From an uncultured archaeon (GTDB lineage: Archaea; Asgardarchaeota; Thorarchaeia; Thorarchaeales; Thorarchaeaceae): 22,445 nt of DNA. The notes under the pieces are model-generated. The model had not been told where the DNA came from. It saw only the letters and a program-made list of their open reading frames with translations, and did no database searches. The DNA lies in NCBI GenBank assembly GCA_964610875.1, contig CAZSWP010000028.1, forward strand, positions 5,909-28,353, written 5' to 3'. This document shows positions 15,169-22,445 of the stretch, piece by piece. Numbering within the stretch: the stretch's first letter is position 1; every line of letters starts with the position of its first letter. The position numbers and the translations under genes are program-made.

Positions 15169-15301
15169 TCCACTGGGTCCCTCCAGGATCTCTACAAGGC
15201 GGGTAATAACCACTGAAATATACAGGATTGTTATCGCAGATTTCATTCATTATATTCCAAATTTTCTTACTTGCAAAATTGCGTCCATAGTTGAATACCA
15301 T
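15161..15301 (-). CDS. Putative second leader ORF (46 aa, aromatic-rich), overlapping the chorismate mutase start
   Basis: MVFNYGRNFASKKIWNIMNEICDNNPVYFSGYYPPCRDPGGTQWNG*; GGAG upstream; its TGA overlaps ATGGATGA of the next gene. Confidence 0.4.
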   Translation of the reverse strand: MVFNYGRNFASKKIWNIMNEICDNNPVYFSGYYPPCRDPGGTQWNG

Positions 15302-15314
15302 ATTTATCCACTCC

Positions 15315-15352
15315 AAAAAGAACACCTACGAAGACAAGAGTCATCGCGAGGT
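15315..15352 (-). terminator. Putative attenuator terminator (hairpin plus U-tract) in the leader of the CM-aminotransferase/tyrA operon
   Basis: Minus strand ACCU-C-GCGA-U-GAC-UCUU-GUC-U-UCGU-AGGU followed by GUUCUUUUU, beginning 11 nt after the leader ORF stop. Confidence 0.55.
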
Positions 15353-15363
15353 TAATTCCTGCA

Positions 15364-15444
15364 TCATAGAATGAAATAATAGAATCCACTATAGCAGGGT
15401 CTCTTCCCCTTAAACAGTGCTATAGTTTTTCTACTAATTTCCAT
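15364..15444 (-). CDS. Putative Tyr/Phe leader peptide (26 aa)
   Basis: MEISRKTIALFKGKRPCYSGFYYFIL*; ATG about 31 nt downstream of TATA-like TTATAA (15481-15476, minus strand); YSGFYYF cluster near the 3' end. Confidence 0.55.
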   Translation of the reverse strand: MEISRKTIALFKGKRPCYSGFYYFIL

Positions 15445-15451
15445 GATGAAG

Positions 15452-15545
15452 TCCTGTTTCTGCCAAGTTATTGGCTTATAACATTTATGGCTAATGATGT
15501 ACATTTATGGCTAATGATGGACAGAAACGGGGAAACCTTTATATT
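15452..15545. promoter_or_regulatory. Divergent promoter region: two TATA boxes flanking a 20-bp tandem repeat
   Basis: Minus-strand TTATAA (15481-15476); plus-strand GGAAACC-TTTATATT (BRE-TATA, 15531-15545); ACATTTATGGCTAATGATG twice (15481-15499, 15501-15519). Confidence 0.6.
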
Positions 15546-15577
15546 CCTTCAAGTTTGCGCTCAACTTGGTGAAAGCT

Positions 15578-15628
15578 ATGACAAGGCGGGGATGCCTTTA
15601 TTGTAGGCGGGATTGCCATTGGCAATAA
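15578..15628 (+). CDS. Putative trp leader peptide (16 aa)
   Basis: MTRRGCLYCRRDCHWQ*; GGTGA SD at 15568-15572; about 33 nt downstream of the TATA box; Trp is the penultimate codon. Confidence 0.5.
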   Translation: MTRRGCLYCRRDCHWQ

Positions 15629-15674
15629 CGATGAAGAAATTCGGACACTAGGTGTTCATACTAATTTTGAAGGA

Positions 15675-17006
15675 GTCAAACTCAGAAAACTAAGTATATC
15701 AAATTTTGACCCTCTCACTGCGTATATTTCACTAAAGGAGATATATCCAGGAGATAGTTTTCTCCTTGAATCAATGGAGGGGCCAAAAAAGACAGCCCGA
15801 TTTTCATTCATGGGCTTCAAACCAATTCTAACATTCTCCTCAAAACATGAGGATATCATGATTAACGATGAACGATTGAAATCGAGTAATCCATACGATT
15901 GTTTACGTCGTGTTTTCAACCATCTCGGTTCATCATTTGAACATAACCTACCGTTCACTGGAGGATTAGTAGGCTATATTTCATATGACATGGTTAGATT
16001 TTTTGAACGGATTCCAGCTGAATCAAAAGACGATTTGGATTATCCAGATTCCTATTTCATTCTTCCTTCTGTCATTGTATGTTATGATCATCTCGAAAAA
16101 GAAGTATATAGTATTTCTCGAGAGAAAGATTTGGAGAACAGTATAGAAACAGAACAACACTTTGGAGAACTGTCAATAGGAAAAGCAAAACAAAACATGA
16201 CACAGGAGTATTTTGAAGAGAGTGTAAGAAAAGCTAAGGAATACATCCTTGATGGTGATATTTTCCAAGTCGTTCTTTCAAGAAGGAGTCATCTCTTATA
16301 CAAAGGCGATAAGTTGAGAATTTACCAAACCCTGAGAAATATCAATCCATCACCATACATGTTCTTCCTTGATTTCGAAGATCATAGTTTGATTGGTTCC
16401 TCTCCTGAGATGTTAGTACAATTACGAGGGAGAGAACTAACTACCAAACCAATCGCGGGAACTAGACCAAGGTCCCCTGATCCAGAAGAAGACGAGAAAC
16501 TCAAAGTGGAGATGTTTCTCGACCCAAAAGAAAGAGCCGAGCATGTAATGCTTGTCGATTTGCATAGAAATGACTTGGGAAGAGTATCAGAGTATGGAAC
16601 TGTAAAGGTAGACCAATTTATGGATGTTGAGAAATTCTCACATGTTCAACATATCGTTTCCAGAGTACGAGGAATAATTCGACCCAAGTACTCTGGTTTT
16701 GATGCACTCAAAGCATCATTTCCTGCAGGAACGGTTTCTGGGGCACCTAAAATAAGAGCTATGGAGATTATTGATGAATTAGAACCAACTCAAAGAGGAC
16801 CTTATGCAGGCGTTGTAGGTTATTTTGATCTTAATGGTAACATTGACTTTGCAATAACCATTCGTTCAATATTCACAAAATGTAACTCACTGTATATCCA
16901 AGCAGGCGCAGGTATTGTCGCAGATTCTAACCCAGAAAGAGAATTTTTCGAAACAGAACATAAAATGGAGGCAATGGTCCACGCTCTTGGAGGTGTTGAA
17001 AATTGA
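15675..17006 (+). CDS. trpE: Anthranilate synthase component I (start uncertain; homology extends upstream of ATG 15774)
   Basis: In-frame upstream VKLRKLSISNFDPLTAYISLKEIYPGDSFLLES, then ARFSF, GGLVGYISYD, GDIFQVVLS, NPSPYMF, KPIAGTRPR, EHVMLVDLHRND, FPAGTVSGAPK. Confidence 0.92.
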   Translation, partial: VKLRKLSISNFDPLTAYISLKEIYPGDSFLLESMEGPKKTARFSFMGFKPILTFSSKHEDIMINDERLKSSNPYDCLRRVFNHLGSSFEHNLPFTGGLVGYISYDMVRFFERIPAESKDDLDYPDSYFILPSVIVCYDHLEKEVYSISREKDLENSIETEQHFGELSIGKAKQNMTQEYFEESVRKAKEYILDGDIFQVVLSRRSHLLYKGDKLRIYQTLRNINPSPYMFFLDFEDHSLIGSSPEMLVQLRGRELTTKPIAGTRPRSPDPEEDEKLKVEMFLDPKERAEHVMLVDLHRNDLGRVSEYGTVKVDQFMDVEKFSHVQHIVSRVRGIIRPKYSGFDALKASFPAGTVSGAPKIRAMEIIDELEPTQRGPYAGVVGYFDLNGNIDFAITIRSIFTKCNSLYIQAGAGIVADSNPEREFFETEHKMEAMVHALGGVEN

Positions 17007-17563
17007 GCAATGCATTGATTGTAGATAACTACGATTCATTTGTGTACAACATTGCTCAATACATTGGTGAACTTGGTGCCTCTGTTTCAGTTGTTCGTAA
17101 TGATACCGCAATTAAACAAGCACTTCTTGCCAGTCCAGAACGGATAATATTGTCACCCGGACCAGGTCATCCAAGAGACTCAGGACTGTCATTGGATCTT
17201 ATTGAGACAGCAAAAGTTCCAATCCTTGGTATTTGTTTAGGTCATCAAGCAATTGGGTATAGCTTTGGAGCAAAGATCGTTAGAGGGAAAAAGCCAATCC
17301 ACGGAAAAACATCTGCCATTATTCATAAACAACAAGGAATCTTCGCAGGATTAGAGTCGCCTATTAATGCCACACGATATCATTCACTTGTGATTGACGC
17401 AGATACAATTCCTAGCGATATGTATGTCTTAGCTAGAACATATGATGGAACGATTATGGCAATACAGCATCAGAAACGTCCCATAGTGGGGGTACAGTTT
17501 CATCCTGAGTCAATACTAACTCAGGGTGGAAAACGTATGCTGAGGAATTTCATGGAGATGTAG
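17003..17563 (+). CDS. trpG: Anthranilate synthase component II (glutamine amidotransferase)
   Basis: VDNYDSFVYN, LSPGPG, LGICLGHQ, RYHSL, VQFHPES. Confidence 0.95.
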   Translation: MSNALIVDNYDSFVYNIAQYIGELGASVSVVRNDTAIKQALLASPERIILSPGPGHPRDSGLSLDLIETAKVPILGICLGHQAIGYSFGAKIVRGKKPIHGKTSAIIHKQQGIFAGLESPINATRYHSLVIDADTIPSDMYVLARTYDGTIMAIQHQKRPIVGVQFHPESILTQGGKRMLRNFMEM

Positions 17564-17566
17564 TCA

Positions 17567-18658
17567 ATGACCAGCACATGTTTCACTGTATCATCACAAA
17601 GTAGAACATACGACGTTATAATCTGCACAGATTTCAAAAAGCATCTGTCAAAGAGAATAGAGAAAGAATCTAACCGTGTATTCATCGTAACGGATTCAAT
17701 TCTCAAAGAACTCCATCTCGAAACAGTAACACAATATTTGATTGATAATGGAATAACTGTCTTTCATCACATAATTCCTCCGGGCGAGACCTCTAAGTCT
17801 TTGGAAATAGTTGAGGAAATCTATCGTTTTCTCATTAAACACAATGCAACTCGATTCGACATGATCATTGCTTTTGGTGGAGGAGTTATTGGTGATGTAA
17901 CCGGATTTGTTGCATCGACTTTCAAAAGAGGAATGAATTTCATTCAGATCCCTACCACCCTACTTGCTCAAGTAGATTCATGTCTTGGTGGAAAAAACGG
18001 GGTTAATCTTTATGAAGGAAAGAATCTTGTAGGAACATTCTACCAACCGATTTTTGTACTTGTAGATATCTCACTTCTAAATACATTAGGAGAACGCGAT
18101 TTCAAATCAGGGCTTTCCGAAGTTGTGAAATATGCCGTTACTATGGACCAAAATCTGTTTGAGTTTCTTTATGAAAACCACGAAGATATTCTCGCAAGAA
18201 ACTCGGGAGTTTTATTTCATATTGTACAAAGGTCGCTTGAAAACAAAGCCAGGATAATTGAACTTGATGAACAGGAGCAGTTCGGAATAAGAGAGATTCT
18301 AAATTTTGGCCACACAATAGGGCATGCTATTGAAACATGTGAATCTCACAGAATAACCCATGGTGAGGCAGTAGCTTTGGGAATGATTTCCGAAACAAAA
18401 GCAGCTGTTTCAATGGGTATTGGAAATAAGCAATGCATAAAGAAACTCGTAGACTTGCTTACTTTTTTTGGTATTGCAGGGAAAATCAAAGAAACTGTAG
18501 ATATTGAACAACTTGTTTCTATTATTTCCCATGATAAGAAAATCCAAGGCAACGTACTGAATATGCCAGTTTTAACAGAAATTGGGCGTGTAGAGATGAT
18601 AAGAATAGACCACACACGCTTCTTCTTAGAAACACTCAGGAGGGAGATCTCTTGTTAG
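17567..18658 (+). CDS. aroB: 3-dehydroquinate synthase
   Basis: GETSKS, GGGVIGD, IPTTLLAQVDS, GGKNGVN, KNLVGTFYQP, LNFGHTIGHAIE, HGEAVALG. Confidence 0.95.
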   Translation: MTSTCFTVSSQSRTYDVIICTDFKKHLSKRIEKESNRVFIVTDSILKELHLETVTQYLIDNGITVFHHIIPPGETSKSLEIVEEIYRFLIKHNATRFDMIIAFGGGVIGDVTGFVASTFKRGMNFIQIPTTLLAQVDSCLGGKNGVNLYEGKNLVGTFYQPIFVLVDISLLNTLGERDFKSGLSEVVKYAVTMDQNLFEFLYENHEDILARNSGVLFHIVQRSLENKARIIELDEQEQFGIREILNFGHTIGHAIETCESHRITHGEAVALGMISETKAAVSMGIGNKQCIKKLVDLLTFFGIAGKIKETVDIEQLVSIISHDKKIQGNVLNMPVLTEIGRVEMIRIDHTRFFLETLRREISC

Positions 18659-19677
18659 TAGTGATGAATAAAAATGCAACAAATGAACAGGTAGAAAATG
18701 TAGTAGAAGCTATTATAAAAATGGGACTTGTGCCACATCCAATTCCAGGAAAACAAAGAGTAGCGATAGGAATTACCGGAAACACAAGGAGAGTAGAGGC
18801 AACCAGGATCCAAGCACTTGATGGTGTAATGGAAGTCATTCATGTGACTAAGCCATATAAACTGACAAGCTTGGAAATGAAACCAGAACGCACCATAATA
18901 GAAGTTGGTGGGATTGAAGTTGGTGGTAGTACACCTGTAATTATCGCAGGACCATGCTCTGTGGAGTCATACGATCAACTTCTATCGACTGCAACAATAG
19001 TTCAAGACTTAGGTGCAGATATTCTTCGGGGAGGAGCATACAAACCGAGAAGTTCACCATATTCATTCCAAGGTTTAGGTTTGAAAGGTCTAAAGATACT
19101 TGCTGAAGCAAGAGAGAAAACTGGTTTACCTGTTGTATCTGAAGTTCTGAGTACTGATACATTCCATCTTGTGGAGAGATTTGTGGATATCATTCAAATA
19201 GGAGCAAGAAATATGCAAAATTTTGAGCTCCTGAAAAGAGCAGGTCGTTCTAACAAACCCATCTTTCTAAAAAGAGGGATGTCTGCTACAATAAATGAGC
19301 TATTACTAGCTGCAGAATATATCATGGCTGAAGGTAACTATAATGTCATGTTATGCGAGAGGGGAATTAGAACTTTCAGCGAGCATACTAGATTCACTTT
19401 GGATCTTAGTAGTATCCCTGAATTAAGAGAGCTTACTCATCTTCCATTGTTGGTTGATCCAAGTCATGCAGCTGGCAAAAGGAAAATGGTGATGCCGTTA
19501 GCACGCGCTGGAATGGCAGTTGGTGCTGATGGCCTCATGATTGAAGTTCATCCAAATCCTGCAGAAGCCCTTTCTGATGGCCCTCAATCCTTGACTCCTG
19601 AGATGTTTGGTCAGTTGATGTCAGAAATTAGGAGAATTCCTTTGATATCAAAAGAAATTGTAATGGAGGTGTTTTGA
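18652..19677 (+). CDS. aroF: DAHP synthase, class I-beta with N-terminal regulatory domain
   Basis: IAGPCSVES, LRGGAYKPRSSPYSFQG, QIGARNMQNF, LCERGIRTF, VDPSHA, GLMIEVHP, SDGPQS. Confidence 0.93.
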   Translation: MLVVMNKNATNEQVENVVEAIIKMGLVPHPIPGKQRVAIGITGNTRRVEATRIQALDGVMEVIHVTKPYKLTSLEMKPERTIIEVGGIEVGGSTPVIIAGPCSVESYDQLLSTATIVQDLGADILRGGAYKPRSSPYSFQGLGLKGLKILAEAREKTGLPVVSEVLSTDTFHLVERFVDIIQIGARNMQNFELLKRAGRSNKPIFLKRGMSATINELLLAAEYIMAEGNYNVMLCERGIRTFSEHTRFTLDLSSIPELRELTHLPLLVDPSHAAGKRKMVMPLARAGMAVGADGLMIEVHPNPAEALSDGPQSLTPEMFGQLMSEIRRIPLISKEIVMEVF

Positions 19678-20700
19678 TTGATACGTGAATCAATATTGAA
19701 ACTAGTGGACAGCATTGATCTCTCTGAAGATGAAGCATATAACGCAATGACAAACATCATGACAGGGAAAACCACTGATACCTTGATAGCGAGCTTTCTA
19801 ACAGCGCTGAGGATGAAGGGGGAAACAACAGATGAAATCTATGCATTTGCTAAGACTATGAGAGATTTTTCTGTTCGTATCAATGCACCTCAACATGCAA
19901 TTGATACATGTGGCACCGGAGGAGATGACAAAAATACCTTCAACATTTCAACAGCAGCCGCATTTGTGATTGCAGGCGCGGGAATTCCCATCGCAAAGCA
20001 TGGAAATCGTAGCGTATCTAGTAAATGTGGCTCAGCAGATATTCTAGATGAACTAGGTGTTTCCATCTCACTTACTCCCTATGCGGTTGAAAAATGCCTA
20101 GAGGATGTGGGAATCGGATTTCTTTTTGCCCCAGTTTTCCATAAAGCCATGAAGTATGCCATTGGCCCACGTAGAGACCTCGGAATGAGAACGGTGTTTA
20201 ACCTCCTAGGTCCATTGACTAATCCTGCAAATGTGGATTATCAACTGGTCGGAGTTTTTGATCCGGAACTGACTCTAACATTTGCCAAAGTCCTCCAAAG
20301 GCTTGGTTTGAAACATGCTCTTGTTGTACATGGTTCAGGACTTGATGAAATAACCACAACAGGTGAAACGAAAATTACTGAGTTGAAAGACGACAAGATA
20401 ATCAACTATTATGTTGAACCAGAGCAATTTGGTATTCCAAAAACACGTCTATCGGATATTCAAGGAGGATCCCCAAAGAGAAATGCATCTATTTTGGATG
20501 ATGTTCTTGAGGGGAAGGAAACTCCATACTTGGATGTTGTTCTTCTAAATGCAGCAGCTGGTTTGTACACTGCTGATTCCGTGAGTAGTATTACTGAAGG
20601 AATAGAACTTGCCAGAGATTCAGTCTTAGAAGGAAAGGCATGGAGAAAATTGGAATCACTGAGAAATCTAACACAGGAATTGAGTAGTGATAACATATGA
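19678..20700 (+). CDS. trpD: Anthranilate phosphoribosyltransferase
   Basis: LRMKGET, DTCGTGGD, FNISTA, KHGNRSVSSKCGSAD, RTVFNLLGPLTNP, GLDE. Confidence 0.96.
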   Translation: MIRESILKLVDSIDLSEDEAYNAMTNIMTGKTTDTLIASFLTALRMKGETTDEIYAFAKTMRDFSVRINAPQHAIDTCGTGGDDKNTFNISTAAAFVIAGAGIPIAKHGNRSVSSKCGSADILDELGVSISLTPYAVEKCLEDVGIGFLFAPVFHKAMKYAIGPRRDLGMRTVFNLLGPLTNPANVDYQLVGVFDPELTLTFAKVLQRLGLKHALVVHGSGLDEITTTGETKITELKDDKIINYYVEPEQFGIPKTRLSDIQGGSPKRNASILDDVLEGKETPYLDVVLLNAAAGLYTADSVSSITEGIELARDSVLEGKAWRKLESLRNLTQELSSDNI

Positions 20701-21506
20701 GTAATATAATGAAAATATTGGGAGAAGTAGTTGGCTCCATCACTGAGAAGAAAATTGAAACAAGAAACCCATCAAGAAATCTATCCAAAATTCTCTATGA
20801 AGGTTGTAGAACAAGGGTCCATGTTATAGCAGAAATCAAGCCAAAGACTCCAAAGAAAGGTCATATTCAGGATAAAGACCTCAACTATGATACTATTACA
20901 CAAGCTTACAACCGCGGATTGGCTTCAGCAATATCAGTTCTTGTAGAGGAAGAATACTTTGGAGGTTCTTTCGACTTACTTCGAAATATTAGAGAAAAAA
21001 CAGACTTGCCTATTCTTGCAAAGGGATTTTTCCTTACTCTTACAGACATAGCAAGATGTGCTGCTGCAGGTGCTGATGCATATTTGCTGATGGTAAGAGT
21101 ACTCAATGCTGTGAATAGTGATTTAGAACAAATGATTTCTTTTGGCCGCAAGCTTGGATTGGAACCTGTTGTTGAAGTAGCATCAATAGATGAATTACAA
21201 TATGCAATCGATATGGATGCAAAAATAATAGCCGTCAATTCTAGAAACATATACAGTGATCTGTCTATAGACCTAACGAATATTTCAATCGCAAAGGAAT
21301 TGCCCATGGACATAGTTTTGATAGGAGCATCGGGAATTAATAGTACAGACGATATTCGAAAAGTGTGGGAGATTTCTGAATATAGAATTGATGCAGTTCT
21401 TGTTGGCACAAGTCTGATGAAATCATCAGATCCTGAGAAATCACTGAGGGGATTTGTGAAAACCGGATCTGAATTGGTGAGACTGAGGAGTGAACCCACC
21501 GCATGA
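20697..21506 (+). CDS. trpC: Indole-3-glycerol phosphate synthase (divergent)
   Basis: IAEIKPKTPKKG, AISVL...YFGGS, LPIL.K, GADA, VVEV, VNSRN, SGI, AVLVGTSLM; lies between trpD and trpF. Confidence 0.85.
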   Translation: MSNIMKILGEVVGSITEKKIETRNPSRNLSKILYEGCRTRVHVIAEIKPKTPKKGHIQDKDLNYDTITQAYNRGLASAISVLVEEEYFGGSFDLLRNIREKTDLPILAKGFFLTLTDIARCAAAGADAYLLMVRVLNAVNSDLEQMISFGRKLGLEPVVEVASIDELQYAIDMDAKIIAVNSRNIYSDLSIDLTNISIAKELPMDIVLIGASGINSTDDIRKVWEISEYRIDAVLVGTSLMKSSDPEKSLRGFVKTGSELVRLRSEPTA

Positions 21507-22162
21507 CAAGAGTACAGGTTTGTGGAGTCACAAGTGTTCATGATGCACTCATGTGTGAGTCAGCAGGTGTTGATGCCGTTGGATTGGTTTTGATTAAAGG
21601 AAGAAGTAGAAGCATAAATGCTGAGAAAGTTAAGGAGATTGTCAAACATCTGGGACCTCTTACAACGTCCGTTGCTATAGTTCACAATGAAGACATTGAT
21701 ACCATCAGCGACCTGGTTAACAAAACAGATGTCGATGCTCTTCAACTATATCTATCCAATGCATTAGACATTGAGAATCTCAAGGAGAACGGTAGCAAGA
21801 TAATTTCAGTGATATTGGTTGATTCAAGAACTGGAGAACTGGGCTATGGTCCTGAAACATTTCGAGAGATAGTAGAAGTGTCTGATTTAGTGGTATTTGA
21901 ACCTACTCGAAACGGGATATATGGGGGGATGGGTATAGAATATGATTATGAAGCATTGCTGCACGACTATTGTGGATTTTGTGACAGATTTTCAATAGCA
22001 GGTGGTCTAACCCCATATAATGTGGAAAAAGCACTCAAACTAAGACCCTACTCAGTTGATGTTTCATCCGGTGTCGAGTCATCAATAGGAAAGAAGGATC
22101 CAACCCTAGTACAGCAATTCATTCAAAAATGTAAGCAACAAGATAGGAGGAATAATTTGTGA
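21503..22162 (+). CDS. trpF: Phosphoribosylanthranilate isomerase
   Basis: [42 protein letters not shown]. Confidence 0.9.
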
Positions 22163-22445
22163 CCATGCATATGCATGGACCCTATTTTGGTGAGTTTGGA
22201 GGGAGATATGTTCCTGAAACACTCATGCCAGCACTTCAAGAACTAGAGCAAGCATATAGAAAGTTCTCAGCGGATAGAGAATTCCTTGCAGAATATGAAA
22301 AACTTCTTGGAGAATTAGTGGGAAGACCTACTCCATTGTATTTTGCAGAGCGACTTGGTCACACACATAACGATTCTAAAATATACTTGAAGAGAGAAGA
22401 CCTATGTCATCTTGGCTCACATAAAATAAACAATACAATTGGTCA
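22159..22445 (+). CDS. trpB: Tryptophan synthase beta chain, type 1 (3' partial)
   Basis: GTG 22159 overlaps the trpF stop; [18 protein letters not shown]...[13 protein letters not shown]...[18 protein letters not shown]. Confidence 0.95.

Follow-up and report, generated by a model that had tools for sequence, protein, structure and literature searches.

The window analysed here is a stretch of 22,445 nucleotides (nt) of DNA from an uncultured archaeon of the Thorarchaeaceae, and it carries a trp operon whose first gene, trpE, encodes anthranilate synthase component I. A short leader open reading frame (ORF) with one Trp codon precedes this gene, and the trpE frame overlaps the leader without a start codon of its own. 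Judging from sequence comparison, it is reasonably probable that TrpE synthesis depends on a programmed +1 frameshift by which ribosomes leave the leader frame, similar to that of bacterial prfB, and that charged tRNA-Trp would be sensed through a hungry UGG codon. The anatomy of the leader, its frame relation to trpE and the missing start codon were established by comparing related loci. The elements of the leader are the following (nt positions in the window).

15568-15572, plus strand: Shine-Dalgarno (SD) sequence GGTGA, 5 nt ahead of the leader ATG and kept in the family relatives
15578-15628, plus strand: leader ORF in the 0 frame, 16 codons, from ATG 15578 to TAA 15626-15628, with the single Trp codon TGG at 15620-15622
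15584-15601, plus strand: first repeat, with a G-rich stretch complementary to the anti-SD (15584-15592), then CTT (15596-15598) and TAT (15599-15601)
15605-15613, plus strand: second repeat, internal SD-like stretch AGGCGGGAT, 3 nt 5' of the codon in the peptidyl (P) site
15617-15623, plus strand: proposed +1 shift site CAU_UGG_C, with CAT 15617-15619 in the P site, TGG 15620-15622 in the aminoacyl (A) site and GGC 15621-15623 as first +1 codon
15621-17006, plus strand: trpE reading frame past the proposed shift, about 25 linker codons followed by anthranilate synthase component I
15631-15651, plus strand: mini-ORF of 6 codons in the third frame, from ATG 15631 to TAG 15649-15651, just past the leader stop

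The SD, the leader ORF, the 21-nt repeat, the TGG, the mini-ORF and a TATA box had been described in an earlier reading of the window (the original prediction), and each of them was found in its place. GGTGA is complementary to the 3' end of 16S ribosomal RNA, ..GGATCACCTCCT, as read in two genomes of the phylum. The direct repeat (15584-15599 and 15605-15620) shows 81% identity over 16 nt with a spacing of 21 nt, and TAT (15599-15601) and TGG (15620-15622) occupy matching positions in the two copies. A weaker third copy (75%) was detected at 15525-15540.

The trpE frame and its relation to the leader

The trpE frame is +1 relative to the leader, overlapping it across the TGG, and is open from 15582, just past a TGA that overlaps the leader ATG. 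Its first in-frame ATG, GTG or TTG is located at 15774, 23 codons inside the Pfam N-terminal domain. Since this domain (Anth_synt_I_N) begins at frame residue 42, which corresponds to 15705 and to profile position 3 of 140, and since the conserved LLES motif of TrpE is located upstream of 15774, that codon cannot be the start of trpE. The original prediction had treated the leader as a separate upstream ORF (uORF) ahead of trpE; it had to be revised, given the overlap of the two frames and the lack of a canonical trpE start before the domain.

The layout shared with other loci, referred to below as the cassette, consists of a start codon and NUU_UGG with bases between them that can pair with the 16S 3' end, and the filter applied required the UGG and TT. 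A total of 93 distinct cassette loci heading trpE was obtained, not counting those of a gene-blind search. The expectation that the ORF and its Trp codon would be conserved ahead of trpE was thereby borne out. A canonical start was absent from the whole open trpE frame in 36 of the 93 loci, the present one included. The frame relation was evaluated with a frame-blind motif (start codon, RG[GT], seven free bases, TTTGG), searched 60-260 nt before LLES. Every distinct match (88/88) placed trpE at +1, and two matches were found elsewhere in 417 kb. The distance between cassette and LLES took 17 different values, ranging from 87 to 141 nt, all of them multiples of three.

The first ten codons past the site were then compared in the three frames. 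In 13 independent pairs of related loci, 26 of 66 differing codons were synonymous when read in the trpE frame; the leader frame gave 9 of 61, and the third frame 9 of 62. The low synonymous share in the leader frame indicates that the tail of the leader is not under protein-level selection; the position of the leader stop ranged from 2 to 27 codons past the TGG across loci. By sequence comparison, the +1 frame displays coding-type evolution from the site onward.

These results bear on the alternative that the repeats are a DNA operator, with two copies two helical turns apart, which had also been offered in the original prediction. A repressor would then be bound downstream of the promoter. 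This alternative would agree with the direct repeat and its 21-nt spacing and with the operator-like TGTACA boxes nearby. However, the duplication occurs in one family only, and single copies elsewhere keep the strict frame relation to trpE. The start codon, the SD spacing and the TGG are all conserved and would be unneeded by a DNA site, and the candidate operator boxes are located 5' of the TATA box instead. As an operator also fails to explain the invariable +1 relation and the coding-type substitutions past the TGG, this alternative is considered very improbable.

Other routes into the trpE frame were rejected: readthrough of the TGA from an upstream in-frame start, as such starts are not conserved; initiation at the Ile codon of G-I-A-F-G, as this codon varies and TAG variants exclude it; and transcriptional slippage at TTT, as the run is too short.

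Occurrence of the cassette in Archaea

A TrpE search in 400 genomes of the host phylum revealed 15 loci. All of them share the same plan, namely an SD, ATG or GTG, TGG and trpE at +1, with a trpE frame that is free of stops from the first base past the leader start codon. The TGG is preceded in the phylum loci by five codons counting the start, and it is codon 14 or 15 in the family of this genome. A canonical start 5' of the TrpE domain was absent in 8 of the 15. Three TrpE-like genes examined in the phylum that are more distant (L007-L009) displayed ordinary starts, with SD and ATG or GTG, and no such leader.

Metagenome contigs and species genomes were scanned with an alignment of the TrpE N-terminus. 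The cassette was found in 23 of 27 records with archaeal titles versus none of 53 with bacterial titles, a prevalence that is inflated, to the detriment of the case for a wide occurrence, by the inclusion of cassette-encoded residues in the query alignment. The archaeal titles with cassette comprised Bathyarchaeia, Nitrososphaeria/Thaumarchaeota (Nitrososphaerales) and one Thermoplasmata metagenome-assembled genome.

A Pfam-based sample of one class and a gene-blind genome search are free of that bias. In the class holding a Nitrososphaerales record, sampled by Pfam, trpE was present in 124 of 151 genomes; among the best 30 of those loci, 20 carried the cassette and 10 showed a plain ATG start and no cassette. 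The carriers in this sample include several genomes that consist of a single contig. In the class holding a Bathyarchaeota record, a gene-blind 19-nt pattern searched in 201 whole genomes gave one match in each of 26 genomes, and the reversed pattern, used as control over the same genomes, gave none. A TrpE frame of 460-474 codons opened at the GGC after the TGG, in +1, in 25 of the 26 matches. Relatives lacking the cassette start normally, as observed for L063, L083, L084 and L145 besides the L007-L009 genes and the 10 Nitrososphaeria loci.

Within the sets examined, the cassette was found only at trpE, the first operon gene. In this genome, a search allowing up to two mismatches gave one exact match, at trpE; five near-matches were inspected and discarded, being inside unrelated long ORFs or leading nowhere. 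In L090, ACG replaces the leader ATG of its close relative L069 and the cassette is otherwise intact.

The proposed shift site and competing explanations

In the proposed mechanism, ribosomes would initiate at ATG 15578, with GGTGA as SD, and read 14 codons, whereupon the UGG at 15620-15622 would enter the A site while CAU occupies the P site. When charged tRNA-Trp is plentiful, the UGG would be decoded, and translation would stop two codons on at the UAA, with no TrpE formed. When charged tRNA-Trp is scarce, the A site would stay empty. The G-rich stretch at 15605-15613 would pair with the 16S 3' end, adding a push, and the ribosome would advance one base, reading GGC at 15621, the linker of about 25 codons and then TrpE. 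Translational coupling may carry translation into the rest of the packed operon. The occurrence of the shift, its efficiency and its response to tryptophan are inferred.

The P-site codon was CUU in 43 loci, GUU in 35, AUU in 8, UUU in 5 and CAU in 2. Thus NUU_U was present in 91 of the 93, a U always follows the P-site codon, and the base after the UGG was C in 60 loci. The 12-nt window 15605-15616 pairs with GGAUCACCUCCU at -8.7 kcal/mol. In 74 loci, the 12 nt before the P codon gave a mean of -8.1 kcal/mol against the anti-SD, versus -3.4 kcal/mol for windows inside genes, and pairing of -6 kcal/mol or below was reached by 86% of the cassettes versus 15% of the background windows. In the Nitrososphaeria-type class the SD-like stretch is GGUGAUC, a perfect complement of the 16S 3' end.

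The point of entry could be located with the help of L070, L079, L106, L132, L141 and L235. In these six loci, which belong to two lineages or more, the leader frame reads ..[UC]UA_GUU_UGG.. and a +1-frame UAG stands directly before UUU_GGN. In these loci the trpE frame opens only at NUU_UGG, which pins the entry to the UGG site. The leader stop of L070 lies two codons past the UGG, leaving a three-codon window for entry. Two variants without UGG were found and both have a canonical start: L078, with AUU_CGG, has an ATG at the natural N-terminus, and the metagenome contig L062, with CUU_UAG, has an in-frame GTG. The stop codon in place of the UGG in L062 is exactly the arrangement of prfB.

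It could be argued that the frameshift takes place before the UGG is reached, as early as the first elongation step, at the start codon followed by [AG]GG (here AGG 15605), so that G-[IV]-x-[FI]-G would be the N-terminus of TrpE and the 0-frame UGG would have a different function or no function at all. The rarity of AGG and CGG in this genome (6.4 and 2.3 per 1000) fits this proposal. So do observations on the commonest class that weigh against a shift at the UGG: variation between start and UGG falls on third positions of the +1 frame, which reads G-[IV]-x-F-G, and the +1 residues in this interval change conservatively (I/V, A/T/V/I). This pattern looks like +1 coding upstream of the proposed site, and the only explanation that can be offered for it under a shift at the UGG is constraint on the SD-like stretch. 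On the other hand, the +1-frame TAG between the start codon and UUU_GGN in the six loci speaks against an earlier shift, but for their own class only. The first +1 codon of the ATGGGTG class encodes Val instead of Gly, the P-site codons before AGG are unrelated between classes, and the invariant U_UGG and the canonical starts of the two UGG-less loci would be left unexplained. An earlier shift is therefore regarded as quite unlikely.

A constitutive +1 shift of set ratio, or another form of recoding, would be independent of tryptophan, the UGG being kept since UUU_GGN is needed in the new frame. Indeed, U_UGG_N is identical to the +1 codons UUU_GGN, and the conservation expected from the two readings cannot be separated by sequence alone. 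Such a shift does not account for the gene-blind search, in which the cassette was found only at the first gene of Trp synthesis (25/26 matches). In the 91 NUU loci of the 93 the Phe codon is TTT and never TTC, an observation that is partly circular because the cassette filter required TT; the sole TTC case (L078) has its own ATG start. Taken together, recoding without tryptophan sensing appears improbable.

Classical uORF sensing without recoding was also considered. Here a stalled ribosome would alter the structure or accessibility of the RNA, and trpE would start at a non-canonical codon of the linker, such as ATA 15696 or a CTN after the AAGGAG at 15670-15675. This explanation draws on the conserved leader with its Trp codon and on the folding of the leader of this locus. 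The minimum-free-energy fold of 15566-15700 was -31.8 kcal/mol, somewhat better than shuffled sequences (z = -2.04, with 4 of 200 shuffles equally good). It is in line, too, with the SD-like AAGGAG in the linker of this locus and with the TTG, GTG or ATG near the natural N-terminus of some loci (L072, L106, L132). No conserved non-canonical start or SD was found at a fixed linker position, though, and the AAGGAG, strong as it is, precedes no canonical start and is not conserved in the family relatives. The open trpE frame back to the UGG in every locus and the 17 linker lengths in multiples of three would be left without reason, and the coding-type substitutions beginning right at the site would be unaccounted for.

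Moreover, both local hairpins proposed in the original prediction are present in the minimum-free-energy fold, but alignments inspected by eye revealed no conservation of competing hairpins in relatives, and the hairpin around the TGG is not kept in at least one of three family relatives (L012). A terminator scan of 15250-15850 gave no terminator-like site, in agreement with the earlier suggestion that control may be translational. Since there is neither a terminator nor a conserved alternative hairpin, classical attenuation is not supported, and uORF sensing without recoding is judged to be unlikely.

Several further points weigh against the frameshift at the UGG. All support for it is comparative. 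The present locus has CAU_UGG, and CAU is the P-site codon in only 2 of the 93 loci (this window and L012). CAU re-pairs poorly at +1, which is the main weakness for this particular locus; a shift here would need out-of-frame binding of the incoming Gly-tRNA instead of P-site slippage. The 16S 3' end used for pairing, ..GGAUCACCUCCU, was taken from two genomes of the phylum, as the 16S gene is not assembled in this genome, and in G019 it is not cleanly readable. An ATG, GTG or TTG occurs somewhere in the linker in 26 of the 93 loci. In the ATGGGTG class (24/93 loci) a trpE-frame GTG lies 4 nt past the ATG and the frame is open, so that a plain GTG start of trpE is possible in those 24 loci; in AT-rich members of this class the distance from the TATA box points to a leaderless transcript with the ATG at its 5' end. 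Finally, no cassette was seen before another Trp gene in the trpB2 loci examined. In 30 of 30 family loci, trpB2 has a canonical start 10-19 codons ahead of the profile start, with no fused +1 layout.

Known systems, promoter region and operon

In the bacterial prfB gene, which encodes release factor 2, an SD-like stretch is followed after 3 nt by CUU_UGA_C, where a programmed +1 frameshift takes place. This shift is covered in passages of a review (PMC5009743). The trpE cassette is similar in its short 0-frame ORF at the gene start, in a functional protein that lacks a start of its own and is read in +1, in the bases a few nt before the site that can pair with the 16S 3' end, in the slippery NUU-U P site of most loci (CUU in 43/93 loci) and in its proposed feedback-sensor logic. 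It differs in that the A-site codon is a sense codon, UGG, instead of the stop UGA, and that the factor sensed would be charged tRNA-Trp and not the gene's own product. The hosts are archaea, the leader has 5-14 codons instead of about 25, this locus has CAU in place of CUU, and the cassette is known from sequence alone.

Enterobacterial trpL acts by transcription attenuation through two tandem Trp codons (Rfam Trp_leader). In both systems trpE is preceded by a short leader ORF that contains Trp. A ribosome pausing for tRNA-Trp is the sensor in trpL and would be the sensor here. In contrast to trpL, the present leader has one Trp codon in its 16 codons and no terminator or conserved alternative hairpins, and it overlaps the frame of a trpE without start codon. 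No Rfam match at gathering score was obtained in the whole window, Trp_leader included.

Passages of the review mentioned above (PMC5009743) describe shifts at yeast Ty1 (CUU_AGG_C) and starvation shifts in Escherichia coli that share with the mechanism proposed for the cassette an empty A site at a codon of a scarce aminoacyl-tRNA, a CUU-type P site and a +1 Gly codon next; unlike the cassette, Ty1 depends on a fixed low-abundance tRNA and yields a set ratio. On hungry-codon frameshifting with a functional trans-frame product, the same passages of this 2016 review state that "no examples are known" (PMC5009743). According to part of another report (PMC13751296), Trp limitation induces frameshifting at Trp codons in human cancer cells. 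The antizyme +1 frameshift, a polyamine sensor, resembles the proposal because sensing and response of a metabolic feedback loop both lie in the shift, and because a short ORF1 precedes the functional +1 ORF; as far as passages of two reviews go (PMC5009743, PMC8211752), it differs in being eukaryotic, in shifting at a stop codon and in being stimulated by a metabolite rather than by lack of an aminoacyl-tRNA.

Among archaeal systems, TrpY/TRP-box control of trpEGCFBAD in Methanothermobacter thermautotrophicus, as outlined in passages of a 2019 paper (PMC6737238), is a related case of trp control. Unlike the leader cassette, it is transcriptional and protein-mediated, and the leader is not involved. 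In those passages trp regulation in archaea is known only for TrpY, plus Tar reported there, and a further regulator or mechanism is suspected in Crenarchaeota. The relevant passages of a 2021 review (PMC8211752) list a single archaeal programmed frameshift, a -1 shift in fucA1, and mention neither tryptophan nor anthranilate. A full-text literature search, with subscription journals outside its coverage, gave no paper in which archaeal frameshifting is connected with anthranilate synthase or trpE. The best-supported reading of the comparative data is thus a Trp-sensing +1 frameshift start of trpE that would be widespread in Archaea and is undescribed as far as the literature was searched.

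Whether the cassette has the wider standing that these comparisons suggest is evenly balanced in our judgement: it would be the normal route of trpE translation in large parts of Archaea and a direct gauge of charged tRNA-Trp, the first natural starvation-induced frameshift making a functional enzyme and the first archaeal regulatory +1 frameshift, and the duplicated form, together with aroB and DAHP synthase, may gauge two aromatic amino acids. If this is true, the reading frame of the ribosome would be a switch set by the supply of charged tRNA, a third principle in the control of amino-acid synthesis beside attenuation/T-box sensing and repressors. Gene-calling programs for which a start codon is mandatory would cut such a trpE short inside the conserved domain or call the gene broken. 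The cassette measures about 20-45 nt and makes a sharp prediction, hence it can be directly tested with reporters.

The elements surrounding the leader and trpE are listed below.

15481-15523, plus strand: two 20-nt tandem repeats (15481-15520; repeat identity 95%), with TGTACA at 15498-15503 and TGGACA at 15518-15523
15538-15545, plus strand: TATA-like box TTTATATT, at the same distance as the equivalent box in relatives
17003-22443, plus strand: downstream operon with trpG, aroB, DAHP synthase, trpD, trpC, trpF and the start of trpB

An archaeal transcript usually starts about 30 nt downstream of its TATA box. Because of this usual spacing, the start would be expected about 30 nt 3' of the TATA-like box, near 15568. 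The tandem-repeat pair with TGTACA and TGGACA sits just 5' of this box, and the repeats at 15481-15523 are a candidate operator that would form a separate layer of transcriptional control. A second, transcriptional layer through TGTACA-type boxes 5' of the TATA box probably acts as well. The present locus has one exact TGTACA and one near copy, TGGACA, and two exact boxes are found in many relatives. In most relatives the two TGTACA boxes are 5 nt apart and directly 5' of the trpE TATA box (L013-L022, L026-L065). These boxes are presumably similar to the TRP boxes that TrpY recognises in Methanothermobacter. They occur in lineages that are mostly without TrpY homologues, according to part of the 2019 paper (PMC6737238).

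Neighbouring operon genes overlap by 4-7 nt or abut, and the gap between trpG and aroB is 3 nt. Based on this tight packing, translation of the operon could be coupled. TrpE contains no Trp, and the seven complete operon enzymes contain two Trp residues together, so these enzymes could be made during Trp shortage. Divergent from the trp operon are two further genes, one for a chorismate mutase-aminotransferase and one for a prephenate dehydrogenase. A Tyr/Phe-rich mini-ORF was observed on the minus strand (15363-15443), 5' of the divergent chorismate mutase-aminotransferase gene.

The leader of this family is longer owing to a 21-nt cassette duplication that all 4 trpE-bearing genomes of the family share and that is confined to it. 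In the second copy, this genome and L012 have CAU_UGG, and L013 and L014 have GUU_UGG. In the first copy, CUU_UAU is found here, CUU_UAC in L012 and CAU_UAC in L013, and the copy is decayed in L014. The G-rich stretch of the first copy here forms a duplex of -8.5 kcal/mol with the anti-SD, and the trpE frame is already open from this first copy on. The original prediction had pointed to Tyr at the position equivalent to Trp. The comparison adds NNU_UAY in the first copy of 3 of the 4 members, and aroB after trpG in 4 of 4 family operons (trpE-trpG-aroB), set beside trpE-trpG-trpD in two short-leader operons of another family. The Tyr codon of the first repeat is on this basis a speculative second shift site, an extra to the Trp proposal. 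That Tyr is also sensed by the leader rests on one evolutionary event and is regarded as doubtful. DAHP synthase follows aroB here (in the 17567-19677 region of the window), and the aroB order was also seen in L002-L004.

The mini-ORF, placed 2 nt after the leader by the original prediction, proved to be specific to the family: a third-frame ATG from -1 to +8 nt of the leader stop was present in 4 of 4 family loci and in 7 of 93 overall. A general role as "relay" was rejected on comparing these 7 of 93 loci with 12 of 279 control windows. The mini-ORF and its equivalents in L012, L013 and L014 have 4-6 codons.

The trpE of the family relative L004/L014 (G019) contains an internal TAA that cuts the open frame to 246 codons; the gene may have become a pseudogene, or the stop may reflect an assembly error or a further case of recoding. 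A contig from one DNA sequencing run was identical to the window across 15450-15719, and this run may be the source sample itself.

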